A DNA stretch of 64,000 nucleotides from an uncultured virus (IMG/VR IMGVR_UViG_3300036715_000919) (lineage: Duplodnaviria > Heunggongvirae > Uroviricota > Caudoviricetes), in the IMG/VR virus record IMGVR_UViG_3300036715_000919. The stretch is one strand, 5' to 3'. This document shows positions 14,423 to 60,300 of this stretch, in pieces. A program made the translations under genes and the position numbers. The notes beneath the pieces are model-generated. The model made no database searches. It saw only the letters and a program-made list of their open reading frames with translations, and was not told the origin of the DNA. Position 1 is the stretch's first letter, and each line of letters starts with the position of its first letter.

Positions 14423-14866
14423 ATGGGTACAATCAAACAGCCGGGATGTAAGGATAAGTCCTACATCAAATTAAAGACAATGCATGAAGAATGCCGCTGC
14501 TGTGGCAAAGGTCGCGAATGGGTATGCGACAGTTGTAATGCTCTGCTTGACAGGGGACATGCATTCTTCATTGAGGTGAAAGATTCCTCAAACGAACAAC
14601 ACAAGAAGCCCACCGGCTATGCGATTGCATTCATTGCAAGAGAAGCCTATGAACACGGACATCCTGAAGTCACACTGACGCCAGGCATTTACTTCATCAG
14701 AGAGAGTGATCTCAAACAATTCTTAGGAGATGGATATAACAAATTTAATCATTCCGCCCGATCCGGAGCGCCAGGAAGATTCCTTCACAACGGTGCTGGA
14801 AGCCGCCCCCGCGTTAACAGCGGAGCAGCAGATAGTTCACGATCAGCTACTGAACTGGCTCATTGA
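14423..14866 (+). CDS. Hypothetical Cys-containing protein
   Basis: CRCCG...CDSC; the 3' end overlaps the helicase. Confidence 0.5.
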   Translation: MGTIKQPGCKDKSYIKLKTMHEECRCCGKGREWVCDSCNALLDRGHAFFIEVKDSSNEQHKKPTGYAIAFIAREAYEHGHPEVTLTPGIYFIRESDLKQFLGDGYNKFNHSARSGAPGRFLHNGAGSRPRVNSGAADSSRSATELAH

Positions 14867-17155
14867 TAAGACGAATAAAAAACCAGCAGTCTTTAAAGGA
14901 TTTGCCGGTGTCGGTAAGAGTTTCACACTGACGTACTTTGTACAATCTGTACGTAAGATTTACTCTACTATCTACAATATAGGCATGACAGCGCCAACAC
15001 ACAAGGCTGTTAAAGTGCTCCGTAAGAATGCTATCCTTTCCGTGGACTACCGCACTCTTCACAGTATGCTTGCTCTCAGGGAGCAGATTAATGAATACAC
15101 AGGGGAAATCACTTATGAACCAGAGAAGTTTTCTGCTGTTCCACCGCCAATTACTGATATTAATCTGCTGATAGTTGATGAAACGTCAATGCTCACAGAT
15201 CAGTTATTTAATTATCTGGTGCCATGGATCAAGAAAGGGCTCAAGGTAATATTTACCGGTAGATAAGATTGCCGGTATAAAATCTTTCTAATTGCTGGAA
15301 ACTCTTGAAGAGGTAGCAACCACAACGCAGAGCCAAAGCTCAATCGTGAGGGTTTGAAAATGCTACTTTATAAGACAATCAGCAGCGAAGCCTCTTTAAT
15401 ATGAGGAACGTTCAACGACTATCCCGAAAGGGAGTAGGGACAACTGTCCCGAAACGGAAGAATCTAATAATCATTAACTCTAAAATTATGACAAGAACAA
15501 TTTTAAGGCACTCAGCAAAGGTTAGAGAGTTGATGACAAAATCTACAGAATTATACAAACAAGGAAATCCTAATCATTTCTACGTTTATCAACACCGTAT
15601 TGGACATAGTATATTCTATGTTGGTATGGGCTCCCATGATAGAGCAGTTCGTGTTGCCGGACGTTCAGCGGCTTGGAATAACCTTGCAGATCTTGAACAA
15701 ATCAATGTGATAATAATTTCAAATCTTACCAGCTGCGAGAAAGCTGATATTATTGAGAAACAGCAGATTCAAATTTTTGATAAGGCAGTGAATACTCAAC
15801 ATTCCTTTGATAGAGGACATTGCTTTGATCCCATACTTCAATTCTCGAGAGACGGAGAGTTGAGGGCTAAATATTTGAGCGCAACAGATGCGCAGTTATT
15901 AGGATTTAGTAATGGGTGTATTAGGGCGTGTTGTGATGGAACAAGAGGACTTCATAAGAATTTTATTTGGATGTATCAGAGTGATTATAACAAATTTGGT
16001 TTCCGACATACTGTCAAGCCAAATGAAGTTAAACTTATACAGCAGGTATCATTAGATGGGCAAGTCATCAGAGAACTTTCACCAGCATCTGCTTTTAATC
16101 AATTTGGATTTACAACTAAGAATGTACAACAAGTTTGTACAGGACAAAAGAAATCACATGGAGGTTTTAGATTTAAGTATGTAGAAAATTAGATAAGATA
16201 TAGTCTGATCTTACCAGTAATGGTAAGTTAACAAGAAATGGATCCATTTCAGGTGCCGCCTGTGAAGCATGAAGACTGTATTCCATTCAGAAACTCAGTT
16301 GCCTGGGATTTGCCTACATGGCAACTCTCCAATATCATGCGGCAGAAAGAGGGTAATCCAATTATTGAGTTTGTAACCCTCATCAGGGACAACCCATTTG
16401 AAGAACACTATGATCCTAAAGAACACCTGCTGGATAATGGGACAGGGATCAGTCTTGTGGATGAAGGCAGCCAGAGAGAATCGGCATTGCTTAAAGAATT
16501 ATTCACTGATCAGGCATTCAAGAAAGACTCTGACTTCATGAAAGTGATAGCCTGGAGAAATGCTACTGTGAATAAGTACAATGACATCATCCGGTCAATC
16601 ATCTATCCTCAGCATGAACACCTGCTGAGGATTATGCAAGGTGAGAAGCTCATCATGGAAAAGCCGTATGTCATCAATCCGCGATCGTTGCTTACAAAGA
16701 ACGATGAGATAGAAGTGAAAACTGTCTCCACTCTTAACAAGCAGATCACCTGGACAGATGCTTATGGAATCTTTGACAATGCTAACTTCAAATTCTACCA
16801 GGTAGGCATTGAATGGTACACAGAGAGGGGCATGAAGCAGGGACACATCCCGATTATTCATGATGACTCTCTACCAGCTTTCGCTAAGCTGATTGACAGC
16901 CTGAAACAGATGGCCCTTTCAGCACCGGCAGACAAGCGCAGCCGGATGTGGAGGCAGTACTATAAGACCATCGGTGAATCCGCATGGACTAAGTACAACT
17001 ACTCTATAACCACACATTTGTCTCAGGGAAGTACTTATAAACAGTCAATCGTCCTGCAGTGGGACATATTAGCTAACAAGAAAGTGAGCGAACGTAACAG
17101 GATACTGTATACAGCCTGTACGAGAGCTTCTGACACATTATTTATTGAAGCATAA
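14730..17155 (+). CDS. Dda/RecD-like SF1B helicase, spliced: exon 1 14730-15260, exon 2 16241-17155 (481 aa)
   Basis: Walker A GFAGVGKS, TAPTHKA, DETSM; splicing restores IFTG|DPFQVPPV (GDxxQxPPV); TTHLSQGSTY and YTACTRA. Confidence 0.9.
15261..16240 (+). mobile_element. Group I intron (IA2-type)
   Basis: P1: exon ACCGGU pairs with IGS GCCGGU (U.G); P AATTGCTGGAA; Q AATCAGCAG; R GTTCAACGACTA; P7.1/P7.2 hairpins; S AAGATATAGTCT; P9 CTTACCA-GTAA-TGGTAAG; terminal G at 16240. Confidence 0.93.
15488..16192 (+). CDS. Intron-encoded GIY-YIG homing endonuclease with two NUMOD1-type repeats
   Basis: FYVY...FYVGMG...R; two 'Q.S.DG..+..+.S......I...C.G......F.+.Y' repeats; lies in the P8 loop (ATCTAAT...ATTAGAT). 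Confidence 0.85.
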   Translation: MTRTILRHSAKVRELMTKSTELYKQGNPNHFYVYQHRIGHSIFYVGMGSHDRAVRVAGRSAAWNNLADLEQINVIIISNLTSCEKADIIEKQQIQIFDKAVNTQHSFDRGHCFDPILQFSRDGELRAKYLSATDAQLLGFSNGCIRACCDGTRGLHKNFIWMYQSDYNKFGFRHTVKPNEVKLIQQVSLDGQVIRELSPASAFNQFGFTTKNVQQVCTGQKKSHGGFRFKYVEN

Positions 17156-17278: not shown

Positions 17279-17403
17279 CAGGGCTTGTCGAAGGAAAGGA
17301 ATTTGAAAAATCGAATTTCAGCCCTTATTCCACAGCCAAATAGCGTTACAAATGTTCATAGCCTGTTCGTCCAGCCTTTCTTTTGCCAAACCGTTTGTTA
17401 GGC
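17279..17403 (+). repeat. attC-like site 1 (left end truncated)
   Basis: Arms CAGGGCTTGTCGAAGGAAAGG / CCTTTCTTTTGCCAAACC, ending in core GTTAGGC (17397-17403). Confidence 0.65.
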
Positions 17404-17465
17404 GTTGTTGTGGGTAGTTTAAGGTTCTCAATGGTCGCAATAAAAAAAAGATTTTCAAAAATAAA

Positions 17466-17498
17466 TTTGTTCGTTTCAAATAGCTTCACTTATCTTCG
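17466..17498 (+). promoter_or_regulatory. Bacteroidota sigma-A promoter (-33 TTTG, -7 TATCTTCG)
   Basis: TTTG at 17466-17469, 21-nt spacer, TATCTTCG at 17491-17498, ATG at 17533. Confidence 0.7.
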
Positions 17499-17532
17499 CA
17501 TAGCAATTAAGCAAAATTAAATTTTAAAGATT

Positions 17533-18156
17533 ATGGAAAAAATGACAATCCACAGAGCATTATCAGAATTGAAACTGATTGATGCCAAAATTGAAAAGCA
17601 AATTAACGAAGTGCTGCCTTCTGGTATTTTACAGAAAGGAAAATTAGTTAACGGTTACATTCAGGAAGCTGAATTTGAAAAATCGGCTAAATCAAAGTAC
17701 GATTCAGTAAATGATTTGATTGACAGAAAAAACAAAATCAAATCTGCTATTGTAACTGCCAACGGCGTTACACAGGTAAAAGTTTCTGATAAGCAAATGA
17801 CCATAGCCGATGCTATCAACTTCAAAGCGGTAATTAAGTTCAAAAAGAAACTGATTGCAACCTTAAAGCAAAGGCACTTACAGGCTGTTGGTGAATTAAA
17901 TAAACACAACGAAGCTGTAAACGCAAACGTACAAAGGATTTTGGAAGCAACGTTTGGAAAGGAAAATGTAAAGGTTGGTAAAGAAGATGTTGAATCAGTT
18001 AGAAAGCCTTATATGGATGCAAACGAATTTCATTTGTTTGACCCTTTAAAAGTTGATGCTACTGTGGAAGCATTGGAAAAAGAAGTATCTGAATTTGAGG
18101 CAGAGGTTGATGCCGTTCTTTCTGAAATTAACGCAGTAACAATAATTGAGTTCTAA
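17533..18156 (+). CDS. DIP1984/DUF6847-like coiled-coil protein
   Basis: 'MTIHRALSELKLIDAKI', 'IKSAIVTAN..T.V....MTIADAI', 'FEAEVDAVLSEINAVTII' fit this family as recalled. Confidence 0.7.
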   Translation: MEKMTIHRALSELKLIDAKIEKQINEVLPSGILQKGKLVNGYIQEAEFEKSAKSKYDSVNDLIDRKNKIKSAIVTANGVTQVKVSDKQMTIADAINFKAVIKFKKKLIATLKQRHLQAVGELNKHNEAVNANVQRILEATFGKENVKVGKEDVESVRKPYMDANEFHLFDPLKVDATVEALEKEVSEFEAEVDAVLSEINAVTIIEF

Positions 18157-18160
18157 AAAT

Positions 18161-18502
18161 AATTGATTGGCTGCCCGAAAATCTCAGACACTATTCCTGC
18201 CGCTCTAACAGGTAAAATTGAGCAACCTAATGTTAATAGGCAATCAACATTTAATCAATGTTTTCAAGGTTCAAGTCCTTGCTTCTCGTAAGAGATGTGG
18301 CGGAACTGGTAAACGCAATTGATAAAAAAAAACTGAAAAGTTTAAAGATGAACGCTTAAAGATAAAAGGTTAAAATTTAAAGCTCTTTACGATTAAAGCT
18401 GAAAACGCAAAGTGTAAAGTTCTTTTGAATCTACGGTAAAAGTTTGATAAGTTCTGATAGTATGGCTTGTTGGTTTGAACGTAGCTGGGTAGTCAATCAA
18501 TT
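18161..18502 (+). ncRNA. Structured RNA with permuted tRNA-like domain and heptamer repeats
   Basis: 16-bp closing stem 18161-18176/18487-18502 with G.U pairs; T-arm 18265-18281 precedes a GUAA-capped acceptor stem and a D-arm (18300-18316); 7-nt repeats 18333-18425. Confidence 0.8.
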
Positions 18503-18518
18503 TTTTAAATTATGTAAA

Positions 18519-18683
18519 ATGGCAAAAAAAGCAATAACAGCAAGTATAGAAGAAACAACTATTGATGCTGTAAAGAAACAGGCAAAATTAGAAAAAAGGT
18601 CTTTCAGTCAAATGACAGACCTTTTGCTATTAAAAGGATTAGAAACTGTCCGAAAGAAGCAGGGTGGTAGCAATAACGCCTAA
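18519..18683 (+). CDS. Ribbon-helix-helix (CopG/Arc-like) DNA-binding protein
   Basis: MAKKAITASIEETTIDAVKKQAKLEKRSFSQMTDLLLLKGL: beta-strand, helix, RS.S, helix. Confidence 0.75.
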   Translation: MAKKAITASIEETTIDAVKKQAKLEKRSFSQMTDLLLLKGLETVRKKQGGSNNA

Positions 18684-18876
18684 CGAACAGGGCTTGGCGA
18701 TGCTTGGGAAATCAAGGCTCGTCTGCCCGTAACAAAAGTTTAATTAATAACTAAAATTTCAGATGATGAACAAAAGTAAAATTGAAAAACAAAAGCTGGA
18801 ACAGAAGCCAAATAGTAAACAAAAAGCTGGTGCAACTTCCGTCCACCCAAGTATTGCCAAACCCAATGTTAGCTGC
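18678..18876 (+). repeat. attC-like site 2
   Basis: GCCTAAC ... GGGCTTGGCGATGCTTGGG / CCCAAGTATTGCCAAACCC ... GTTAGCT. Confidence 0.75.
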
Positions 18877-19191
18877 TGGGCATTCAATATGAACCAAAGT
18901 GTCCGTGTCAAACTTAAAGATTTGGGATATGAATTATTAGTCAAAAAGCATAATAAATATTTAGGCGTCATTCCCACTTGGGAAAAACGAACAGTTGAAG
19001 ATTATAAAAAAATGGCTGATAAAGATGGATATACAAGTTTTCAACTTTGGAATTTTATGGAAGAATTTGGGGCTTTTACTGGAATGTGTAAGCCGCAATA
19101 TTATGATAACAGAATTATTTTCAATGCTGCCGATTTTGAGGAGTGTCCGCCTTGCAGCCAACAATGTGCTTTATTCAATACGGGTATTTGA
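18763..19191 (+). CDS. Hypothetical cassette protein (may start inside the attC-like loop or at MNQSV)
   Basis: 'FNMNQSVRVKL...G...DGYTSFQLWNFM..FG', a small phage protein pattern. Confidence 0.6.
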   Translation: MMNKSKIEKQKLEQKPNSKQKAGATSVHPSIAKPNVSCWAFNMNQSVRVKLKDLGYELLVKKHNKYLGVIPTWEKRTVEDYKKMADKDGYTSFQLWNFMEEFGAFTGMCKPQYYDNRIIFNAADFEECPPCSQQCALFNTGI

Positions 19192-19254
19192 AATACAAAT
19201 GCTCGGAGCGAAGCACCACGTCAGCCCGTATTGAATAAAGCACATTGTTGGCTG
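19155..19254 (+). repeat. attC-like site 3, perfect 30-bp inverted repeat
   Basis: 19155-19184 is the exact reverse complement of 19225-19254; cores AGCCAAC/GTTGGCT. Confidence 0.8.
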
Positions 19255-19315
19255 ATGTACGGTTTATAGTAAGATAGTCAGGTTTAACCTTATTTATTAA
19301 CTACAAAACATAAAA

Positions 19316-43245: not shown

Positions 43246-46200
43246 CTATTGAAGTGCATCCAGGTCCTTGTTGGCCATGTAAATGCTCTTGTTGATGAGC
43301 GTCGTCTGCGGAATTGGGATACCAGCTTTGGTCATTTTCAGTGCCCACTTTCCAAATGTGTAATCATCGTCAATTATCAGCCTCATGGTAGCGCCAATGG
43401 CTTTACCATAGTCTGTTAACACTGAGGTAGCAGGGATGACATTCTTGGTTACAGATTCAAACACACCCGGAGAAGCATAGAAGTCAATATCCTGTTTACC
43501 ACGGATAAGCATATTGAGTAGCACTTGTGTGGTGTAAGCACTCTTCTTGTCATCATCTCCTGCATTGAGATGTTTGAGCATAGCGATGGAGCCTGCGAGT
43601 ACCAGGAAGTAACCGAGTTCAGATAAGTTCTTCCTCATATTTTCTGTATCCACACTTTCTTCATCTGTCAGTAGCTTACCACCAATGGTAGTGATACCAC
43701 TGAAAGGATTGACTTTTACTCCCGGTAGCAGGCCTATGAGCTGTCTTCCCATTACCATGGCATACCCACCGATACCGATCTGATTATCCAGATTAAAGAA
43801 GGAACGGTAACGTCCTTTTACTGCACGACCCAGGTTCTCATCAAAGCGTTCATCCTGGAACCTATTATACCATCCCTCAGGTAACCAGCTTGCTCTGAAC
43901 TGACCAAGCAGTCTACCCAGAATTGTTTTGTTGATCATCTTGGGAGCATTCTTATCCTGGTTACCGTGTAGGATTACATTCACACGGATAGCCTTATTAC
44001 GAAACTTGTCCCATTTCGTCTGCTGTTTAGCAGAAGTACCACTAACCCAATCCTCACTTGGTCCGTGTTTAGCACTGTCATAGTAACCATTTTCATCCAG
44101 GCTATCCCAAATAGATAACTCAGGAGTGATCTTATCGTGCATAGCCATGGCCACAGTAGTAACTCCTTTCATGAAGAAATCAGTCTCCCGCATCATACCG
44201 AAAGGATCAGCTATCTTCTTCCAGGTAGATTTGTTATCACGGAACTCAGGTGCCTTACCATATTTGGATTCAACGTAATCTCCAATGATACCGGCTCTAT
44301 CCATCATACCCATCACTTTTGTAGCCAGCTTCTTATCAAAGAGTGCCCTGGTCATCAGAGTACGAGCAGCAGCAACGTGTGCATGGGTAAAGTCCCTTCC
44401 TCCAGCAGCATGAATGCTGATGGAGATAAGTCCAAAGGTTACGTTCGCCACAGCAGAGAATGGGTTATAAGAGAGTGCCTTCAGTTGATTGATACCGATT
44501 AGTTTGTCACCGATCTTCGAACCATACATAGTGAAGCCTTCGTACTTACCAAGCTGCTGGTTGATAGGCTCAATGGCAGCTCCGTACTCTTCCTCTGTCA
44601 GTTCTCCTGTTCTGAACTTCTCTTCCAGTTCTTCCCGTTGAGCAGTCAGTTTTTTCACATCCCGTGTCATCTTGATATGCTTGATAAGATTGAGAGAAAA
44701 CTTACTTCCCTTTCCGGTATTCTTAGAGTACAGTTTGCTATTGGTGTTACCCTCCAGTTCCTTTGGTTTGCGGAACATAGAGTAATCCTTTAGGTACTTC
44801 AGTGCATCCAACGTATTACGTAATCCCTTCTGTACTGTAACAACTTTACCATTCTGTTCCATTTGGGTAGAGCCTTCAATCTGAGCTCTATTCACTTCTT
44901 TGAGAATAGTTTCTCCCATATCAATGTAATCTTTGGCAGCAGAAAAATGTTTGTAGTGAATGGCCATCATTGCAAACAGGCGTCCTATACCAATCAGGTC
45001 CTTGCTTCTATCCTCAAGAACTAACTTATTAGCATTTACAAAGTCAATCGGTATCTTATCAAAGGCACGGTCACTCATCTGTTCTTCCCAGCCGGTAGCA
45101 GTTATACTGCGTACAAACTTTTCATTGAAAGTCTTCACCCAATCTACTACATTGAACATGTTAGCCATCACCTCTTTCCTTACAGCAGGTAGAAAGTCAG
45201 CACCTTGCCTGTCTTGTACTGCTTTAGGCATATAAGAAAGAAACTCATCTATCATATTTTTGTAGTCGTTGTAAAATTGGCTTACTTTAGAATCTTCCAT
45301 CAATCCTTTGTAATCGTCATTCCACAATTCTTTACTGCTTAACTTGGGAGCCATAGCAATATACTCTTCTGTAGCTTCAGAGAAAGAACGTGCGCTGTTG
45401 TTACGGTCGAAGAATACATTGGGACTGTGCTTATTCTGCCACTCCTTCTTCATTACCTCAGCTTCTTCTGCTGTATGCTCATGCAGGACAACGCGTTCAT
45501 CCAGTACATCAAAATGTGTGTTCTTATCTTCAATATACTTCAGGTAACGTTCCTGAGCTCTTGCAAGTAATATCTCTACGTGGTCAGCCCCTACATGTAT
45601 GGCCAATTCTTCCCGTGCACCTGGGTTATCAATCAACTCTCCTGTCGTGGGATTGAAGAAGCGGCGGGTGTCAACGAAGACAGCTTTCTTATCTACCTCC
45701 TTCCAGAAAGCTTTCCAGGCTGCTTTCTTAGGTCCAATAGCGCCGACAGTATCATTGCCAAAGTTCTTCTCAATATCGGCAATAGTTGCATTACGTTTGG
45801 CAATGATGGAGCGTCTCCATTCAAACCATTCCTTACTATACTGCATAGTCAAACCCAAAGATTTGGCACTGGTTTGAGTCATCTTATTATACAATGCTTC
45901 CAGTCCCTTCTTTCCACCTGTATGAGCAAGCATGTTTTTCTCCAGTTTGTTGAGTTTCTGCATCGCCTCATAACACTCCTCATCTCTTTGACGGGCTGTA
46001 GTTTCAATAAAATTAGCCACATGAGAAGTCACTGTACTCTTAGCTGCTGAAGAGAGTGAGCGTAGTAGCTTCTGATCCATACTAATGTCTTCTACCTGTT
46101 CAAAGTCTTTGGTACTGCGAATCACTCCAGCACTCACATCTACCATATAGTCTTTGCCTTTACTCAGTAACCTATGTACAAAGTTACCAGACTGGTTAGC

Positions 46201-49200
46201 CAACTGAGATAGTTCGGGATCAACACTCGTGGCACTATCACCATACAGCAGCTCAACTATGCCTCTCCACATCTGAGCGATGCGTACAGCATTCATGATC
46301 TCATTTTCATTGGGCTTCTCCTTAGCGTCTATACGGGCAACCCACTGCAGATGTTTCTTTCCAATTTCACTCACCTGCATTAGATCCTGGCTATCCGCCA
46401 GTTTCTTAATATCCTCTTCAATCTCTTTAATCTTATACCGTTTATCTAACCGTGATCTGTTGTCAGTTACTCCGGTGTAGGAGTTAATGAGATCCTGTTT
46501 TTGCTCAGTAAGTTTACCGATCACTTTGTCAATGGCTGAGATTTCTTTAGTATTGATACTTGCATTGCTTAGATCACTGAACAGTTCAGTTGAACTCATT
46601 ACACTGGCAGGAGCTCTCAATACCATATCGTGTGTTAGCAGATCCAAAGTACGCTTAACACTGGTCTCAGCGAGTGTACCATTCTGTACTCCCAGTGCAG
46701 TCTGCAATGCATTCCACACTTTGGCAAACAGGTCCTTGATCTTATTCAGCAGACTGGTTTTGTCCTCAGATTTAATTGAATTGAGGAAAGTAATCGTTCT
46801 GCTGTCAGAAAGAATATGGGAGACAAACTCAGTAGCATTGTTCAATGAATAGTACAGTTTACCATATTCAGTATCATGATCCGTTTTCAGCAGTTCAAAG
46901 TACTCACTGCCAAATTTGGTAACTACTCTTTTCCTCAATTCAGCCATAGCTTCCTTCCTTGCATCTTCTACAGCAGATAATTTCTGTTGCAGTTCAGGAT
47001 GTCCATCAATGAATGCCTTAGCTTCACGTAACTTAGCCAGGGTACGGGAATTGACTCCCCGTGCGGCCCAACTGGCTTCGCCTTCCATAGCCATAGTCAT
47101 CAGAGCTGTGTGGTAGTGAATGTTCTCATGAATGATGTTAGCTGCCAGTAGTTGTTTGTTACCAATTCCTGGAATAGAGAAAGTCATTTTGTTACTACCA
47201 GAGTTAAATGTAGCTGCTGTACCAGATGGAAGAGAACTGAACTCATAGCTGAAAGCCCTATTCATTCCAAACACATTTTCATAGGCAAACGCTTCAGCCG
47301 GGTTACGCTGCATGTTACCCAGTACTTCAGCCATAGCACGGATGTGCGCTGGTTGACCTCCGTCTCGGGCAATGACACTCATAGAGTTGATTATATCTTG
47401 CAGACCCCCAGTCTCTTTAGTGATACCTACTTGACGCATGGCAATAGTATGAGCACCAGCAGTTGTAAGACTATCCATCACACTGTTGCTTAGCTTTCGG
47501 TACTCAGGACTGATGTGTTCAAACCAGGGAGCACGGTTATCGGCCACAACTGAGCGTAAACCTTTCTGATCTACCTGTCCGGCAGACTCTGCATATTCAC
47601 TGAGCTGCAGTTTGCTGTCTCCTAGTGTGTCGATGCGTGCAAACAGTGGCTTAGCCGTTCCAGGTACCATCCCCATATTCTTGTACAGGTACCACTTGTT
47701 CTCTTTTCTGTAAGAGAGGTATGTTGGGTAATCTGTGAATTTCTTTCCATCATCTGTAGTCATGGTTACTGCCAGAGCAGCTGCAAGATTACCTGTATTA
47801 TCATCTGCGTTGTATATAGGCAATGCGAATGTATCCGGAGCTATAGCTGGTTTTCCGATCTCATCCAATTCAGCAGACAACTGCCGGGCGAGATGTGGAT
47901 TGTGCTGAAAGATCTGTTCTACCAGAGCTTCACTATCATTGAACTTACTGATCTCATTGAACTGTTCCCGCAGACCGAAAGCAATCTGACTTCCCTCAAT
48001 GGTTGCCCATGGAATGTACTTGATGAAGTTCCTGGTTCCCTGTAAGCCTCCGATGAGGTAGTTGTATCTCACCATATCAAATCCCAGAGCTTTCTTCACA
48101 GGATCTTCAGAGGTAAGCATAGTTAGCCACGCCTTTGAATTTTCCACATCATCGGCCATACTGGCCTTGGATGCATTGTACTCAATCATATCAGGACGTA
48201 CACCGTTAGGATCAATGTCTGTCTGTAACCTCTGTAACAAATAATCATTTTTTCCCCAGGTACTCTTAGCTGAAAGTAATCTCTGTGCTAAGCTAAGATT
48301 ACTTCCATGAGAGAAAAGTAATCTTACCCGTTCAGTATAGGCATCACTGTAGAGACCAAGTTTCTTGGAATTGAAAGCAAAGGACTTCATAGCATTGAAG
48401 ACAAGTTTCTTCTGCTCATTATTCAATCCATCCTTACCCGCTAATTCCATCACACTGTTGTAAGACTTTTGAAGAGCCTTGTACGGAAGTTCAGGACTAT
48501 AGAGATCCAGTGCTGTATTCACAGTACTGTCATAAGTCACACCCACTTCAGTGAGACCATTCTTCTTGTTACCAAACACCTGCTGTGTATTAGAGAGGAA
48601 CTTCTCACTGGTAGTATTTGGCTTGGCACGTTTCTCAACTGTGTTCAGCACACCCAGCATATCTTTGCCGGCACCACGGGTATCCTGTGCCATAGTAGAC
48701 TGCAAGGTTACCAACTGTGAGCCTATGTCATCAAATTGTTTAAAGAGTTTCAATGCGGCCTGCTGTAAGGTATTGAACTCAGTAGTACCAGGTTTTAGTT
48801 TCAATGCTTCCCGCATCTTCTCTGGATTAAGTAGTACTTCATCTACCTTCTCCCAGTCAACATCAGTTTCATATTTAGTGGTCAGATCAATGAATACCTT
48901 ATCTTTCACCTTGCTTTCAAAATTCACACTCAATGTATCATTAGCAGTACTTAATGCAGCAGAGAATTCCCTCACTATTGGCTGCATCAACAGCAAGGCG
49001 TTGTATTCCAGGTTGATTGATTTACCGGGTACAAAGTCAGCTTCTCCTGGTGTACCCTGATCTGCTGTTTGCAAACGGGACATGGCCAGTGAAGCAGCAG
49101 ACGTATTCGGGTCCAAATTGATCTTATCAATTACACGGTTCTTGGCGTGATCCACAGACTCACTTTGTTGTATCTGTACGTTATCAGACTTTGTCCGACG

Positions 49201-52200
49201 TTCCCCCTTGTAAGTAGTCTCACCGAAGCCAGACAGCTCGCTCAGGTGTAAGGGGTTACCTTCTTCATCAGCTACAGTGATAGCTGTAGACTGTGTATAC
49301 TTACCGGCTTCCTCAACTACCCATTCAGCCAATCCTACTGTACTGGTTTGTAATACAGCGTTACTGGTAAGGGCCAATGAGGTTTGACCTACAAGTACCT
49401 TGGCGCCTTTCATACTCTGGAAGTCACTCAGTTGGTAAGTGGGAGAGAAGTAGTACGGCACTTTTCCTTCAGCGGGTGAAAGTTCATCCGCCATATCTTT
49501 CAGGTCATTCTTATCCAATGGGCTCATGATGGAATCCAGCATTTCCGGATTGGTCAGTGTACTCCAGTGAACATCGAAGTAGTCATTATCCAATCCTTCA
49601 GCAGCTGAGAGTTTTCCTCCGTCTGCTGTATAAGATCTGTGGTAAGTGTAGAGCTTATCCACATCGAAGTCAGCTCCCATTTGCTTGGTAATACCAGCGG
49701 GTACCACAATCATGTCGCCCATGTTTTGAGGAAGGAAGCCAACGATTTCGATTGGAAGCATGGAGCTATGCCCCTGATTAGGAATACGAGCACCTACCAG
49801 TTGAAAGAGTTCCGGTGGCATCTTTTCTGTATCCAGCATCTTCTTATTATCCACTTCTTTGATGAAGTCTTGTATGTTTAATCTGCTGTCAGAAAAATAG
49901 TTAAAGCCTACGAGTACCTGAGCTGGAACTACAGCACCATCCTCCCCAATATGAGCAGTCTTCAGATTACCATCGAACGGCTTGGTCCATACTATCTGGC
50001 TGCGGTCAAGGTTGCTATCTTCCCATGTAGCCAGTGTCCTGAACCCGGCAGGTGAAGCCTGAATAAATGAATGGCCTGGCATCTTGATTTTGACGATCTT
50101 TTTTACCATAGACATCATCATTCCTTCGAATTTACTGAATGAAGGGGTGAATGCCAGTGGCACCACAAGTTCATCTTGTCCTTCCATGTAACTGGTAAGT
50201 GCCAGCAGATCATTGACAGTGTAACCATCACGATCTTTGGCTTCCTTAGCCAGCAGGTTGTAGAATTTCTTCTTATCCTTGAAGCGTATAACATCCTTGT
50301 CAACATCATAGATAGCTCCAACCTTATCCAGGAACTTAGCGTGAGACTGTGTAATGAGTTGCTTGCGTATGTCTTCTTTGATTTGTCTTAATTCAGCACC
50401 GCTTTTCTCCTTACCACGGTATATGAACTTCTTCTGTATTGTAGGTATTTTTTCAGTGATGTTCTTGTTCATCTGGCTCACAGTCAGGATAGCATCCTTA
50501 TCTTCATCGTAAGGATTGTCCTGCTGACGACCATTGAATTCTCTGGGTATGTACTGCCTGGAATCAGCGATCCAATCAGTTGTAGTGAAAGTATCATCTC
50601 TCACCTTACCATTATCGTCAAATAGTTTGAGAATTTTAACCGGTCCTCCCATTTTCTTAGCAGAAATGAAATTCAATCTGTCAATACCAGTTTCAGGATG
50701 CTCCATTGCAATTCTCAATTTGTCCAGTTCCAATCCTTCAATGAATGGTGGATAAAGTGGAAATGCCGATGCTTTAGTATAAGTATAGGGCATCATTCCT
50801 TCCATTGGTGGCATTAATCCAGCCTCAACATTCTTTCTTGGTTGTAGAATGATAGATTCAAGATCAGGTCCAAAGTTGTAGAACTTGCCATTAGCTTTTG
50901 TAATAATTCCAATAGCCTTATTGTACTGCTCCTGTGTAACATCCCCATAGGTACGGGCATCATTTAAGTACTCACGCATTGTCCAAATTTCCTGTGCATC
51001 TGTAGCATTAGCTGGTTTTTTGTAAGAAGGTATCTGACTTAATTCGTGTATCACTGGTTCCCAGTCTTCTGCTGTAACAGATGTATATCCAGGACTATGG
51101 CTTGTATCTCCATCCTTACGTGGAGCAATATCTTTAGCTAAACGTTTACCATATTCAATCAGCGTCGCATTAAGAACCTCGTCATGTTTACCTGTAAGTA
51201 CATTTTCTTCTCTATCTGTAGTTCCTTTTGGAGCTTTAAATGCATTGGCAGGGTCACCATAGAATAACTGGCTTAATCCGGTATTGAACAGGAATGAGTT
51301 CAGTGTGTAGTCTGCGGCGGCCAGATCAATATGTAATTTCTGAACCAATTCATCAGGTACTCTTTCTTCACCATCCATCCACACGAACTTGTTACCTTCT
51401 TTAGCCTGGCTCAATCCTATTCCTTTTAGCAGACCATTGTAGTACCATTTACTTCCTGGCAGTCCGGCTTTAATCAATTTACTATCAGTCCAGCTCTGTT
51501 TGGTAGCCTCAATCATTTCATTCAGCTGACGGGCGATGAGCTTCTTAGCTGTAGCCTCAAAAAGTACATTGTCCTGATTATTCAATACCCATTGTCCATC
51601 TTTGCCCTGATTCCAGATAGCTTTCATCTCACCCTCAGTAAGCTTTCTTTCTTTAACAGCAGACGACATCTGCTGGTGATTGAAAGCGGGGAATAGATAG
51701 AAGTACTTCTTGCCATTAGCATAGTTACGGATGTTCTCACCTCCAGGTTGAATGGCACGCTGATGTTCACTCAGGAATACACTTCTGTACATCGTGTCCA
51801 ATACTGTATCTGAGATATAGAGTTTACCATTCTTGCGTACTCTGGTGTCAGCGAGACGGGGGGCATTCATGAACACAGGTGTCTTGGTTTTATCTGAATG
51901 TGTCAATGAAACCATGTGCCCTGTCTCACGACCACTGTTCTGAAATAGTCCCAGTAGTGTCAGCCATTGTTCGCGATCGCTCATGTCAGGCCGGGTAACA
52001 CCATCGCGTGAACCATAGCGGTTCTTTAGTCCATCCAGATACACCAATTCGAATTTACTCAGTACACTGGGATTCAGTGCAGAGAGTAACCAACTGTTTT
52101 TGGCAAAGTAACTATTCTGAAATGACTGTCTGTAAGCTTCATCTTCTTTAAACTTCCTCACTGCATGGGATACAGCAGAATTTAATCCGAAGCTGTAGAT

Positions 52201-55200
52201 CGTCTTGCCCTCAGCAGACTTATGTGTCTGGCTATAGACTTGAGTAGTATATTTTAGTTGTGCCTTGGCCAGTATCTTGATAGCAGTGTTCTCCACATAC
52301 AATGGATTGTTCGCCTTGTATGCTTCATAGTCTTCACCATTCTCCAGTTCCTCTGGTCGGGCAGCTTGAGTCAATCTCCAGGCAAGTACATCAACAAGTC
52401 CTATCGGTTTACCCTCCTCACTTATACCAGCGTACATATTATTTAAAGATAATCCCTTTGACAATTGATTAAATAGTAATGAAGTATCTCTATCAGGAAT
52501 CAATTCTGCTATTGCCTTATCGTCCATAGTAATTCCTATAGCAGTAGACAGTCTTTTAAAGTAATCACGTTTTTCTACTACCCAATCTTTCTTCTGTTGT
52601 GCCAATTCTAAATCCTTCTTATTACGCTTCTTAGAGTATTCTTTAGGGTGCAGCTTATCATCCTCTTTAGTCATTTGATAGGCACGGGGCTGTCTGCTGT
52701 AGAGTAAAGTCAATTCTTTTTGAAACTCTTTAGCCTGATCTTCATCAATAATAGTCTGACCAGCAGCATTCTTTGTCAGTAGACCAGCAGTCTTTTGTGC
52801 TTCTTGCCAGTACCGCTGCAATGTCTGCACTTCACTTCCCCGGTTAGAGTCAATGACGCTGGGTTCCAGATAGCCATCTTTACTCCGCGTCATGAGTACC
52901 ATCAGCATACGCTGGTACTGAGAAGACATCACGGCAACGAACTGTTTTACAATATGATCTTTTTTATCTTCAATTGCTTTCTCCAATCTTTCAGCTATCC
53001 GTTGCATATTAGCGTTGCCTGTAGCTTTTAATGCAGCGAGGTACCCTTCAACCGACGGTTCTCTTCCAGCCAATAGTGCAGAAGCATCTTGAAATGTCTG
53101 TTCGAAGTTGGCCAATTTGTTAGCTCCAAGGAAGTTTACTTCAGGAGCAAGTACATGTGTCCTCTGAACGTATGGAGTAACATGGAGCACTACATCTCCT
53201 TCAGCAGGTGTATGGCCTTCCTGTTCCTGTATGCGTTTCACAGTAATTGCATCTGCAGAGTCGGCTGTTGTCCATGTACGGATGGCAGATAGTCGTAAAG
53301 GTTTACCATCAATAATGATTGTCTTTTGAGACCTTGAATCTCTTTCAGTAGAAATTAATTTGGGAGATAGATTTGATAAAGCAGTAATGCCTAAGTCCTT
53401 TGCATTTTTAGCAGTCATAATTAAATCAGACTTTAATCCCCTCTGTAGTAAACTTCTGGTTTCAGGGTTTCTAATGTAGGAATCAAAGTCTGCAGTCACA
53501 TCCTCAGGTTTAGGCTCGTTCATGAACTTACTCTCAGGAGTGCTCATGAACCATAACTTCAAATCAGTACTCATGGTATCTTTCATATCCATCTCAAAAC
53601 TGCTGTCACCTCTGTCCTTAGTAATAGCACCTTCTTCAATTTGCAACTCACCATTTTCATCTTCAATATAGGCGTTGCCATCTGCCCCAGTTTCTATAAT
53701 TTCACCTTCTTTCATTTTGATCTTCATACTACGTAACCGTTCTATAGCGAAGTTCCAAAGATGATTTTGCTCCTTGGCTATATAGAAAGAATTGATAATA
53801 TTGGTATAAGTATCCACCATAGACCTGGAATTTTCTGAAGCAGCAATCTTCTTACTCTTACCATCATTGATAATTCCCCACAGCTGACGTGATCTTTCTA
53901 ATTTACCGTGTACTTCATCTCTCATGTACTTCATGGTGGACTTACCGGCAAGCTTACCTTTCTGGTCAGTACTGTCCTGCAGATCAGAATAGATGTTATA
54001 GAACTGGAACAAGATCGTGTTTAGTACTTCATGCTGCACTTCCAGATCAAAGTACTTGCCCGTAGGTTGACCATCTATATCACGAATCTGGGCCACGATG
54101 AGCTTCATCTGCTTCTCTATAACAGTAGGATCAAGGTTGAGTGGATTGCCATCTTCCATTATCAGGCCTTTGGCGAAATTCTTAGGGATGTTCTGTATAG
54201 AAGCAAACATAGAGTTCTCAAACCGCACGTTAGGTGGTACGTTGTCCTTATCCAGTAGGTTTGCCAGTTGAGCACCAGTGACTCTTTCTTTGTTGTCAAG
54301 CCAGATTATATCTGTGGGAACCAGTGGTATAGTGAACTGCTTGGAAGGATTACTCCCTGCCTCAGTGTAGATGGATTCAATTGTTTTGTTCAGTTCAGGT
54401 AAAGTCTTTGCATTGAATCTATCTCGGGGAATAGAAGTCTCAGGTGCAGTTGATTTGCTGTAGTTGATCAGATTGTATCCATGTTGAGTACTCACCTTGA
54501 ACCAGTCATTCCCATGCTCATCGGTGATACGCTCTACATTCTGCTTACCGTACTGCTTGTTGAGTACATTCTGTACACGGGTTTCATAGAAGCTTTCGAT
54601 GGGTTTGAGCTTCTCAATACCTTGAGATTTGAGATCAGCTTTCTTCTGTTCAAGACTTTTAATCTCCTCTTCTATATTACTTTCATTCACATACAAATTC
54701 TTATCTACATACAACTGTCCATCATACTGAGGATTATTTTCTGTAGCAAATTTATCTGCCTCTTCAACAGTATTAAATGAGGCTCTTGCATCTCCAAATA
54801 AATATACGACATGCTGTTGAATATTCTTTTCCTTTAAAGCTTTTATTGAGGTATCTATTCGAGTAAGTTCATTAGCTAATGTCTCATGCCCCTCAATCTT
54901 AGCAGCAGTCTCACCAGCAGGAAACAGTACACTTTCATATCCTTTTTTGGCTGAGTCTTGTACGATGGACTTGACGAAGAAGGTTACCCAGTTGTTGTCT
55001 TTGTTGAGGAGTTGTAGGAACTGATTCTGTTTTACAGTTTCTTGGTCTAAAGTAGGTTGAGCTTTATCTATTAGGTCAAGCATTTCCGCATAAGAAATCT
55101 TCCCTTCGTCATGTTGTTCTTTGTACTTCATCCTAATATTATGCAATTCTTCACCTCTTTCAAAATCTTCATCAGGAGTACCATCAATTAACTCAGCGGC

Positions 55201-57339: not shown

Positions 57340-60300
57340 TTAACATTTAATGAATGGGTTGTATCCGTCAGCTATCCTGCTGATGCCTAAATCCTGTAGA
57401 TATTGAAGTACCTGTGCAGGGGTCTTGGCGTTGCGTTCTTCTGTAGCTGTAAAGTTATACAATTGTTGAAGATTATCAAGGGTAAGTTCATCTCCATTTG
57501 GTGCAATTATATGGCGCACTGCTTCAAAGTTGATGCTACCATTCATGAGATCATTCAGCTCATCAGCCGCATCTTCGTATTCAGTAGTAACGGTACCTGC
57601 TGTGTCTGGTGTAGAAGAGATGAGTTCTGTTGCATTGGCAGTAGCTGCAGGCCTCAATTTAGATTCATCCAGTATCATCTGTCCATTGACGGCGTACACA
57701 TGTTTACCAGCTACAGTGTGTTTACCGTAGACAACAGTACTGAGGAATGATTTTGCATACGCGTTGTAGTTGGCATACTCTTTATGAGAGAGTACGTCAT
57801 TGGCATTGATGGTAACAGCAGTGATCGGCTTGGGATCACCTAAGCCCATCAATTTGCCCCCACTCAGATTTACATTCTTCATGCGACCATTGAGTCCGGC
57901 GATGAGAGCATCTCTGAATGCAGGATTGAGTTGACCATTCTTCAGGTCAGCTCTCAATGGACGTTTACCGCTGTAAGTAGTTCCCACTTTGATGTCAGCT
58001 TTACCATCAGTACGTGTTCCTAATTCATCTGGTACTTGGAAGAGCCAACGCAGTTCTTTTTTTCCCTCTACAGCTTCAGCGTTACCTTCAGTCTTGGTAT
58101 CAGCGAAGCCATTGGTCAGTGTAAAGTACTGCTCAATGAATCCTTTCAGTCCAGCAGGTGTACTGATGTCAAAGCCGGTATATTGTTGTATCTGGTCAAT
58201 AAGTTTCTGTCCCTTGTCCCCCAGAAAGTCAGTTCCATGCTGCATGTACAGCTCTATAGCACGCACAACAGTGTTGATTTCTCCTGGACGTTTGGACAGA
58301 GGAGCTGTGAGCATTGGTACTGGCATGTACTTACCATTGTTCATTGGTATGTAAGCTACAACTGAAGTACGAGGTTTCTCTGCTGTACCCATCAGTCTTT
58401 CCCGCTGCTGTGTAGTGAGGTCAATCATATCCAGTTTGGTACTGGCCAGCAGGCTTTTGCCAATCATCAGTCCATCCTTAGTAGCTACACCAAAGGTGAG
58501 ACTGGTATCAGGCAGTAATTTTTCAGCTAACTGTGGACGGTATTTCACCTTACCAGTAGATTCATTTAGATCCCCAAAATACATAAGCCTACCTGGAAGC
58601 ATACTACCAGTTGTGTGAAGCTTAGCTCCAGGATTGGCATTGTGCCGTTCAGCCAGTTCCTTTCGAATAGCCAATACATATTCCATCTGGCGAAGTACAT
58701 TACCGGGTTCTCTGTTACCATCTGCGTCAGGCGGCATCAGGTCTTCTACATTACGGAAGTTATCGCTTCCCTGTCTGGCAGTGATCCAGTCAGCTCTGGG
58801 AAAGTACTTCAGTGTCTTACCAGTTTCAGCATCTACAATCTTAATGGGTACATTGCCATACCCAATCATTGCTTCATGTGCTGCAGTCCTGATTTTTCCA
58901 TCTGTTGTGTATTGAGAGAAGGAGTCATTCAGTTTCACTTCATTCAGATCTTCATCCTGTACCAGTGCATCGTCATTGAGTCGTTGGCCATTCCAGTCAG
59001 TGTCAATCTGCAGGTACACCTTGTGTCCGGGTTGAATGGCACCGGGGATAAGGTTCTCTTTGTTAGCGTGCGGATCGAGTTGAGGAGCACCATTTACGGT
59101 GACATTCCTCAGCATACGTTTGCCATTGTACTCAATCGTCTTATACTGTAGATCAGAACTGTTACCTTTTACGGCATTAGTAGTTTTGGCTGAGTTCTCC
59201 CAGGGCAATGCCTCAAGAGTATCATCAGTGAACCAGGATGCATTGTCCAGAGTGAGAGGCTGCTCATTCTCTATCACAGCAGGAGTATCTGTCTCTTTCA
59301 GTTCAGCGGCTCCTTCTATAGGATCAACAGTGATCTGCTGTGCAGTAGTGGGGACAGCATTGTTTTTCTCCTTCAAGTACTCTCTCAGTTTGATCTGTAC
59401 CTCATTCACTTTCATCTGGCTAATCTCACCGGCCGCCAGCATTGGGCGGAAAGCATTCTTTAGTAAGTCGTAACTATAAGAAGTACCGGCAGTGTGTTCA
59501 GTTTCAATCTTGTCCAGTATCTTCAGTGCCTTAGCTGGTAATGAATTCTTGAGCTCCAGGTATCCATCTGTAGCAGTAGGCTCTTCGAAGTTGGCCAGTT
59601 CATCTGCTGTATAATGAGTTTGAGGCAGGTCGCCTTCAGTCTCCGGATTCTCCTGATATGGTTCCTGGTACTCAGCTTCTTCACTGTCAGCAGCCTCATT
59701 CTCTTCAGCAGGCCGGTTAGCTTCCACAGTTTGTTTCACTTCAGCAGTAGCTTTCTGGTCAGATAACAGATCCAGCTTATTCTGAGCTTCGCTGATCTGA
59801 CCTTTCAGTTGAGCAATTTGACTCTTGAGGATAGTCATCTTCTGAGTGAGAGGAATGGTCTTGTTCAGAGAAGTGAATGCTCCCATTCCCTTACGCAGTT
59901 CTTTCACCTGCTGTTCAAGACTGGTGTATTCATTGGTTGCCTGCTGGAGTTTAACAGTGTCCTCGGCCAGTTGCTTCTCAGTTTTGGCAATGAGCACTTC
60001 CTTTTCTTTCACAGACAGTCTATTCACAGCATCCCGGGACTGTTGTCTCAGGAAGTTTTCTGTGTTGTCCAGTTTGTTCTTCTCCTGCATCTCTTTGATG
60101 ATGGCTTCTTTATCTCTCTTTAGTGAGGCAGCTACTTTAGCCATACCCCCCTTGGTCATGATCTTATTGAATGTTCCATGTGCAACACTGAGCTGGAACT
60201 TCTGTAGCTCCAGGTTATTCCTGTCTTCAGTCAGCAGATGATTACTGCCTACCTGATCCAAGTATCCCTGAAAGGAGTGAGAGTTGTTCTTCTCTTTCCA

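Follow-up and report, generated by a model that had tools for sequence, protein, structure and literature searches.

A phase-locked heptamer tract as the unpaired arm of a conserved structured RNA downstream of a phage protein gene

The stretch of DNA analysed here (the window; 64,000 nt, IMG/VR record IMGVR_UViG_3300036715_000919), presumably from a crAss-like phage to judge by its gene content, holds a 362-nt gap between two open reading frames (ORFs), the gene for a 207-residue helical protein and a small Arc-like gene (18519–18683). Within this gap lies an A-rich tract that repeats every 7 nt, which raises the question of what a strictly phased heptamer array between two genes is for. We find that the tract belongs, as one module, to a structured RNA about 335 nt long (18164–18499), that it is left unpaired within this RNA, that its period, phase and length are conserved, and that the RNA is linked to the upstream gene, hereafter the partner gene. 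Our preferred, though tentative, reading of the tract is that of an arm serving as a periodic protein-binding platform in an RNA–protein particle.

The heptamer tract and its conservation

The sequence given for 18333–18425 in the original prediction, made from the letters of the window, is correct on direct reading. In the register xUxAAAG the tract comprises seven units in a first run and four in a second, each run being closed by a U-rich element (all on the plus strand):

18334–18382, plus strand: heptamer run 1, seven xUxAAAG units; unpaired in RNAalifold and without a covarying partner
Units of run 1, plus strand, from the sequence: 18334 TGAAAAG, 18341 TTTAAAG, 18348 ATGAACG, 18355 CTTAAAG, 18362 ATAAAAG, 18369 GTTAAAA, 18376 TTTAAAG
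18382–18391, plus strand: U-rich punctuation 1 (GCTCTTTACG), bearing a 2-nt phase shift; BoxA consensus GYTCTTTAANA with one mismatch
18392–18419, plus strand: heptamer run 2, four units, from sequence and alignment
Units of run 2, plus strand, from the sequence: 18392 ATTAAAG, 18399 CTGAAAA, 18406 CGCAAAG, 18413 TGTAAAG; then 18420 TTCTTTT
18419–18430, plus strand: U-rich punctuation 2 (GTTCTTTTGAAT), running into a conserved AAAUCC, from sequence and alignment

Run 1 is followed by CTCTTTA (18383) and then by two extra bases, CG, before run 2 begins. Both GYTCTTT run ends that had been proposed are present (GCTCTTT at 18382–18388 and GTTCTTT at 18419–18425), and the phase jump of 2 bases after 18389 is real; it is kept, together with both U-rich ends, in the alignment of 74 RNAs described below.

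The tract (18333–18430) gives the strongest period-7 signal of the 64 kb. Ranked by excess lag-7 identity, the top eight of 9129 sliding 98-nt segments all start between 18299 and 18348; the best reaches 0.346, compared with a mean of −0.005 (standard deviation 0.052) over the 64 kb, and the lag-7 value of the tract was reached by 0/5000 mononucleotide shuffles. Tandem Repeats Finder likewise reports arrays of period 7 and period 14 at 18336–18382.

Related loci, 80 from metagenomes and 80 from IMG/VR, were collected through the partner protein and blind to the RNA, which was then located in them with an nhmmer profile built from four seeds. Of 121 distinct RNAs, 74 were aligned with MAFFT (alignment A3), in which the heptamer block is nearly free of insertions and deletions. 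With capitals for positions conserved in ≥90%, the consensus of the block reads ctgaAAAG tTnAAaG nTnAAag nTnAAaG nnnAAag nTtAAan nTnAAAG tTcTTnnnnn for run 1, and TnAAAg nTtAAan nnnAAAg ngtAAAG nTcTTTnaAAtCC from run 2 onward. U2, A4, A5 and G7 of most units are conserved in ≥90%, whilst x1 and x3 vary freely; by this consensus, each unit has five constrained positions and two free ones. Two further ideas, slippery frameshift heptamers and an array of stops in three frames, were set aside, since both hinge on x3. As had been proposed, the period is not codon-related: conservation follows a period of 7 rather than 3, and stops occur in all frames of the tract.

Among 122 non-identical homologous RNAs, neighbouring AAAG motifs are spaced 7 nt apart in 407 cases, 14 nt in 144 and 21 nt in 37, compared with about 3.4 occurrences per spacing in shuffles. 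Lag-7 identity peaks at 0.42–0.50 in all five pooled groups of loci (0.15–0.29 at lags 3–5 and 9–11), and the peak is found in nearly all of 17 representatives; in Erwinia phage AH06 the maximum falls at lag 8, and in a T5-like locus lags 7 and 8 tie. Vibrio, Lactococcus and Cronobacter phages have units without the A-richness but retain the period of 7. The periodicity first read from a single sequence is thus kept in homologs, both in period and in phase. A profile of the heptamer block matches 232/248 sources; tract length is identical in 58/73 close metagenomic relatives, within −1 to +2 nt in 56/58 Bacillales copies, and 10–12 nt longer in 53/54 gut-type phages. The conservation of the units spans phages of several bacterial phyla and one bacterial family.

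RNAalifold leaves the tract unpaired in A3. Its columns have no covarying partner there (best mutual information 0.37, with scattered partners, vs 0.9–1.9 in the helices described below), and the tract alone folds no better than shuffles (minimum free energy z-score +0.38). Self-pairing of the palindromic TTTAAA units was set aside for want of covariation, and so was a triple helix of the U-rich elements with the A-rich units, because the complementary AAAGAAC is not conserved in A3.

These observations bear on whether the array could work as RNA alone, each unit forming a U-turn with an adenine stack, as in an anticodon or T loop, so as to build a rigid tertiary arm or to support RNA–RNA oligomerisation like that of ROOL and GOLLD. 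The U2-x3-A4 of a unit would fit the UNR rule for U-turns, and the fixed length of the tract and the ornate core of the RNA are in keeping with the idea. The phage setting beside or around tRNAs also resembles that of GOLLD and ROOL (compare PMC12286853). Nonetheless, with neither covariation nor predicted structure in the tract and a dedicated partner protein always present, we consider an RNA-only arm distinctly unlikely.

The U-rich elements suggest a further alternative, namely that the two GYUCUUU elements are BoxA sites which recruit NusB/NusE, either to render RNA polymerase resistant to termination over downstream untranslated tRNA genes or to titrate Nus factors. The published BoxA consensus is GYTCTTTAANA (bioRxiv 10.1101/091223); positions 18382–18392 (GCTCTTTACGA) match it at 10/11, including C4, the majority form of element 2 in the 74 RNAs is GnTcTTTnaAA, and tRNA arrays lie 3′ of the RNA in gut-type phages. 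One or more copies of GYTCTTT are found in 59/76 close RNAs, 40/56 Bacillales RNAs and 7/9 RNAs from metagenome-assembled genomes, but it is missing in 32/32 gut-type and 6/6 isolated-phage RNAs, the latter including E. coli phages, in which BoxA is best defined. The 7-mer is moreover common in the AT-rich window (33 matches vs 23.8 expected), and the heptamers are left unexplained, so that a BoxA role appears very improbable.

The structured RNA and its partner gene

The RNA to which the tract belongs is genuine, structured and conserved. The RNAalifold consensus of A3 contains three long-range helices, to which two more were added by eye before pairs were counted. The resulting helices P1–P5 comprise 35 pairs, with 92.4% of 2572 cells paired compared with 31.8–44.1% when partners are slid, a control that favours P4 and P5 somewhat as these were defined by eye on the window. 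Compensatory changes occur in 30/35 pairs, and on none of the measures do any of 500 shuffles equal the observed value. These helices also supply the highest mutual information anywhere in the alignment (top pairs: columns 522–612 and 523–611), and the whole RNA folds better than shuffles (minimum free energy z-score −2.75). The original prediction had placed the tract inside an RNA, which the covariation of the flanking helices confirms. The parts of the locus, all on the plus strand, are as follows:

17533–18156, plus strand: partner protein gene, 207 aa, helical (phrog_1491; T5.085 family); a listed ORF with PHROG match E 4.5e-56 and without a Pfam family
18164–18176, plus strand: P1 5′ strand, closing helix of 13 bp (pairs with 18487–18499); 12/13 pairs change on both sides, 91.2% of cells paired, n = 74
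18179–18184, plus strand: P2 5′ strand (pairs with 18471–18476), pseudoknotted with P4; 98.2% of cells paired, 4/6 pairs compensatory
18190–18195, plus strand: P3 5′ strand (pairs with 18456–18461, the P5 loop), a pseudoknot; 6/6 pairs compensatory, 95.7% of cells paired
18196–18212, plus strand: 5′ hairpin (CCTG...CAGG), from the sequence and a reading of A3, without a formal pair count
18254–18323, plus strand: permuted tRNA-like insert, read from the sequence; outer stem 18254–18259/18318–18323 in the place of the anticodon stem
Within 18254–18323, plus strand, from the sequence: T arm 18265–18281; acceptor-like hairpin with GTAA loop 18282–18297; D-arm-like 18300–18316
18431–18484, plus strand: 3′ domain; P4 (18431–18435/18480–18484) encloses P5 and the 3′ strands of P3 and P2
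18449–18453/18464–18468, plus strand: P5 hairpin; 4/5 pairs compensatory (P4 likewise 4/5)
18487–18499, plus strand: P1 3′ strand, from the pair count in A3
18501–18506, plus strand: conserved U-run after P1, likely the 3′ end of the RNA; a T-run stands behind P1 in most A3 rows

Because P2 and P3 cross P4 and P5, the core is doubly pseudoknotted.

The link to the upstream helical protein, also proposed at the outset, holds both in crAss-like and metagenomic phage loci and in prokaryote genomes. Across 149 ORF-called loci the RNA lies directly 3′ of the gene and on the same strand, except in six without a match and two that are cut; all six end ≤186 nt past the gene, and the RNA is present wherever the downstream sequence exceeds 190 nt. 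It follows the gene in 69/69 prokaryote genome loci (one genome per species scanned). These are mostly chromosomes of Lysinibacillus, Sporosarcina, Solibacillus and relatives, where the module is flanked by ordinary cell genes (for an MFS transporter, a LytS-type sensor and an acetyltransferase); 17/55 loci share an upstream flank and the remainder fall into small groups. The chromosomal copies (L189–L247; for example L194 at 1186–2120 and L193 at 1192–2110) keep the plan of 7 + 4 heptamers, and a classical terminator stands behind the module in L194.

With a profile of the partner protein, at least 3642 clusters (50% identity) are recovered, and 800 phage records contain the protein by tblastn, including T5-like (T5.085), Pseudomonas Otagovirus, Vibrio, Lactococcus, Bacillus, Clostridium, Klebsiella, Erwinia and Acinetobacter phages. 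All eleven phage records that were opened have an unannotated gap of about 300–500 nt 3′ of the gene, and the RNA was recognised directly behind the gene in T5-like, Pseudomonas, Erwinia, Klebsiella, Clostridium and Bacillus phages. In two of them read by eye, DT57C and phiPsa374, the plan is the same: P1 is followed by CGAAAG and a 5′ strand complementary to the loop of the 3′ hairpin, then by CTGAAAAGYTTAAAG and by AAACC-P4...P4'-GGCTG-P1'.

The RNA is probably made as the 3′ part of the partner gene's transcript, since P1 begins 7 nt past the stop codon in the window, a T-run stands behind P1 in most relatives, and the promoters annotated in phage T5 lie upstream of T5.086–T5.085 and downstream of the RNA, leaving the interval from T5.085 to the RNA without one. 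A simple terminator scan found no terminator after P1. Contigs from RNA libraries cover 18185–18429 (X19; 248 nt, two other letters and one gap) and 18313–18684 (X20), and a metatranscriptome contig (X21) covers 18239–18487; they show presence in RNA libraries rather than transcript ends, with DNA carry-over possible.

Between the 5′ strands of the core and the heptamers lies a variable region. At the permuted tRNA-like insert, the A3 majority consensus holds GGTTCGAnTCC ... TAGCTCAGnTGGTTAGAGCA. The insert is missing in L001, in T5-like loci and in the Bacillales copies that were read, so the tRNA-like module is accessory. In some relatives the layout is that of an acceptor 3′ strand, one base, CCA, a small hairpin and an acceptor 5′ strand; such N-CCA relatives number three by script, and L012, L039, L052, L060, L083 and L100 were recognised by eye in A3, the script count of permuted modules being rough, with false positives such as L008, L013 and gut-type rows. 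Such an arrangement corresponds to a precursor of a permuted tRNA or tmRNA, one that could be cut into two pieces. Two gut-type RNAs carry a sequence that scores as a full tRNA in the variable region (L115, 2308–2380, 50.3 bits; L132, 2323–2394, 58.9 bits); they belong to phages of 100–150 kb with tRNA gene arrays 3′ of the RNA, and their embedded tRNAs are the only threshold Rfam matches over the RNA.

The order of T arm, acceptor, D arm, single strand and pseudoknots, with N-CCA in some relatives, recalls a permuted tmRNA, and the window copy sits in a replication module. It might thus be asked whether the heptamers are a tmRNA-like coding stretch, or whether they act as DNA, in the form of iterons, an origin or bent DNA. 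Both are scarcely credible. Against them stand the covariation of the flanking helices as RNA, the constant placing of the tract on the strand of the gene, and the period of 7 and the stops in all frames given above. A tmRNA identity was likewise rejected: ARAGORN finds no gene in the window, RF00023 has no match at the RNA, and the acceptor-like stem is closed by a GTAA tetraloop.

In several relatives tRNA and tmRNA genes of the phage surround the module, and in AbTZA1 it adjoins a gene with an RF-1 domain; this repeated placing, a matter of context only, points to tRNA or translation biology. In L104 (1034–1441), a 100-kb viral contig, a tmRNA-like match to RF00023 (45.1 bits against a cut-off of 47; E 1.1e-14) immediately precedes the partner gene. 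The same neighbourhood has been taken into account for a decoy, in which the array would mimic the single-stranded target of a host factor (an RNase E-type cutter, an anticodon nuclease, S1 or Hfq) and titrate it. The units would resemble anticodon loops, which have 7 nt, U33 and a purine at 37, AG↓xUx would fit the RNase E rule RN↓WUU, and the T5 module lies near a dispensable tRNA region. Set against this, Bacillales chromosomes retain the same RNA where the flanks are not prophage-like, and no single such host factor is common to all host phyla; we therefore rate a decoy as improbable.

The partner protein and what the arm may bind

An AlphaFold2 model of the partner protein (family of 105 sequences; predicted local distance difference test score 93.7) is all-helical (helices 6–26, 45–79, 91–141, 150–164 and 174–202) apart from a small sheet formed by both termini and a hairpin at 81–90. 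The invariant residues are H7, L10, K70, N77, I95, D193, L196, S197, N200 and T203, and the polar ones cluster at one end of the model. Conserved basic residues (R8, K14, K19, K22, R65, K66, K70, K98, K104 and K105) lie in helix 1, where helix 2 ends and where helix 3 begins. Among PDB structures, 3kdq, from Corynebacterium and without an assigned function, matches best, with a Foldseek E of 3.5e-3 and a VIA-align Z of 9.9 across 150 residues; in BFVD the matches are to uncharacterised proteins from a variety of phages, and the ESM Atlas returned unnamed viral clusters only. The PHROG label of phrog_1491 is 'tail fiber protein', whilst Pfam, NCBIfam and PADLOC scans of the protein gave noise only. 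The best 150 of the 3642 profile clusters are all 198–238 aa long and therefore include no fusion that hints at a function.

A type III toxin–antitoxin system (ToxI-like) was considered and set aside. It calls for repeats of about 34–36 nt upstream of a toxin of ToxN/AbiQ fold, whereas the repeats here are of 7 nt and lie downstream of the gene; ToxN_toxin matches 1/105 family members only (E 0.0045), and PADLOC gave nothing meaningful.

The original prediction had one subunit of the upstream protein binding each heptamer, in the manner of TRAP or a nucleocapsid, such that the RNA would template an oligomer or limit its size; the version weighed here has 11–13 subunits. The strict linkage of protein and RNA speaks for this, as do the strict period, the unpaired units and the conserved basic residues, and a fixed number of units would give a defined stoichiometry. 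However, the number of repeats is essentially fixed across very distant hosts, so the RNA does not appear to be a variable limiter of oligomer size, and the fold, a helical bundle with one small sheet, resembles neither TRAP nor a nucleocapsid. The single conserved end of the model would suit one specific site on each protein more readily than a coat of the nucleocapsid kind, and the charge of the family also argues against a coat. Taken together, the fixed unit number, the acidic to neutral character of the family (median isoelectric point 6.0) and the single conserved end lower the odds of one subunit per heptamer, which we regard as unlikely.

The reading that we prefer, to which we would give somewhat less than an even chance, is that the tract is the unpaired, phase-locked arm of the RNA and acts as a periodic protein-binding platform in an RNA–protein particle. 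The RNA would be transcribed as a 3′ extension of the gene for the helical protein of about 207 aa. Its 5′ and 3′ ends build the doubly pseudoknotted core P1–P5, its variable region is either empty or occupied by a whole tRNA or a permuted tRNA-like insert, and the heptamer arm, with 7 + 4 units and each run closed by the U-rich GYUCUUU, would be held off the core at a fixed length. The arm would then offer a periodic, sequence-specific landing strip for either the cognate protein or a conserved host RNA-binding factor. As the module sits in tRNA and tmRNA gene regions, the particle would probably serve tRNA or translation, or host defence against them.

Several points weigh against this reading. 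The protein family is mildly acidic (median net charge −2 over 105 members), and none of the PDB matches is a known RNA-binding fold, those other than 3kdq being generic helical bundles. The non-A-rich units in some clades make the recognised motif less clear than xUxAAAG. The advantage that P4 and P5 have in the slid-partner control, and the possible carry-over of DNA into the RNA libraries, count on the same side.

A more specific and more doubtful form of the idea is a widespread RNA–protein particle of T5-like, crAss-like and many other phages and of Caryophanaceae bacteria, in which the eleven units, each the size of an anticodon loop, serve as a ruler that aligns partner subunits or captures components of tRNA or translation. 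Were a ruler of this kind to exist, it would represent RNA-templated assembly of a sort not described before. If the preferred reading, that of a protein-binding arm, is true, a conserved RNA with a dedicated protein is unannotated in the model phage T5 and present in crAss-like phages, and it would provide a testable object for the identity of the orphan phrog_1491, for phage activity around tRNA clusters and for the reading of a phased single-stranded repeat. The double-pseudoknot core and the heptamer arm are attractive structural targets.

Comparison with known RNAs and the wider locus

The RNA, with its dedicated partner gene, was previously uncatalogued. Rfam 15 gives no meaningful match at 18100–18800 up to E 10, and over the whole window only a group I intron elsewhere; beyond the embedded tRNAs, there is no threshold match over the RNA in T5-like, Pseudomonas, Bacillales, Erwinia and Klebsiella phages or genomes and 20 metagenomic loci. 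Among 60 listed of 440 T5-like records, none has an RNA feature on the stretch. A literature search, which lacked most subscription journals and supplements so that an earlier description is possible, found no description of the RNA; the part of PMC10690425 that was available mentions neither crAss nor the repeat. sRNA2 of phage PAK_P3 is described in PMC4933390 as having a T-loop-like 11-mer between tRNAs; PAK_P3 is not among 60 listed of 739 records for the partner protein.

One close resemblance in parts is to YrlA (RF02553), in which the 5′ and 3′ ends likewise close the RNA, a tRNA-like T arm, capped acceptor and D arm are internal, and the 'anticodon stem' joins the remainder. Sub-threshold RF02553 matches fall exactly on the tRNA-like module in nine relatives (8/20 metagenomic loci, 30.8–48.2 bits, and Erwinia phage AH06, L176, 37.3 bits; cut-off 69), whilst the window itself has none at 18100–18800. 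These scores are below the cut-off, the module is optional here, and the partner is not Ro60; Ro60 (rsr) was not named in PHROG scans of 43 window ORFs, no TROVE-specific search having been made. Neither a heptamer arm nor a pseudoknot core is known in YrlA.

As in the leaders bound by TRAP and HutP, the tract presents short conserved motifs in tandem at fixed spacing and fixed unit number on an unpaired strand. HutP sites repeat every 7 nt, and TRAP, a beta-sheet ring, has 11 sites. The protein here is a helical bundle, 5/7 bases are conserved per unit, the tract belongs to a stable structured RNA rather than a leader, and binding is putative.

The tmRNA–SmpB system shares the order of protein and then RNA, a tRNA-like part, a single-stranded A-rich stretch, pseudoknots and a neighbourhood of tRNA and tmRNA genes, and permuted two-piece tmRNA shares the permuted order, with N-CCA, of some relatives. 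Unlike tmRNA, the present RNA has no tag reading frame and no ARAGORN or Rfam match, its tRNA-like part is often absent or capped, and the partner lacks an SmpB-like fold. GOLLD and ROOL are also ornate phage-borne RNAs of unknown function that lie beside or enclose tRNAs; the RNA here is much smaller, has a dedicated partner gene and a heptamer arm, and has no Rfam match. OLE RNA with its Oap proteins is comparable as a structured RNA co-inherited with a dedicated protein of no known enzymatic family, but its sequence and structure are unrelated, and here the partner looks soluble and helical and the hosts are mainly phages.

The replication module of the window encodes a ligase, a DNA polymerase, Dda-like and DnaB-like helicases and a primase. 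A group I intron (RF00028, 52.2 bits, cut-off 50; 15251–15548) interrupts the Dda-like helicase gene, splitting it into two ORFs, and its region carries an ORF with HNH-endonuclease and helix-turn-helix PHROG matches (related coordinates 14730–15263, 15401–16189 and 16238–17152). Two giant ORFs lie on the minus strand at 43249–57330 (about 4693 aa) and 57343–62619 (about 1759 aa); the latter has no PHROG match. The segment 17000–20500 has no blastn match in 50,697 phage records.

For 17300–19300, 20–26% of sampled words are present in 14 runs (X5–X18), figures that have no bearing on habitat; the runs are mostly DNA on record, from wastewater, groundwater, sludge, freshwater and mouse gut. At 18685–18770, contigs of the X20 RNA library have 20–31 other letters in place of 58–67 bases, which suggests that the spacer separating the Arc-like ORF from the one after it varies among related phages.

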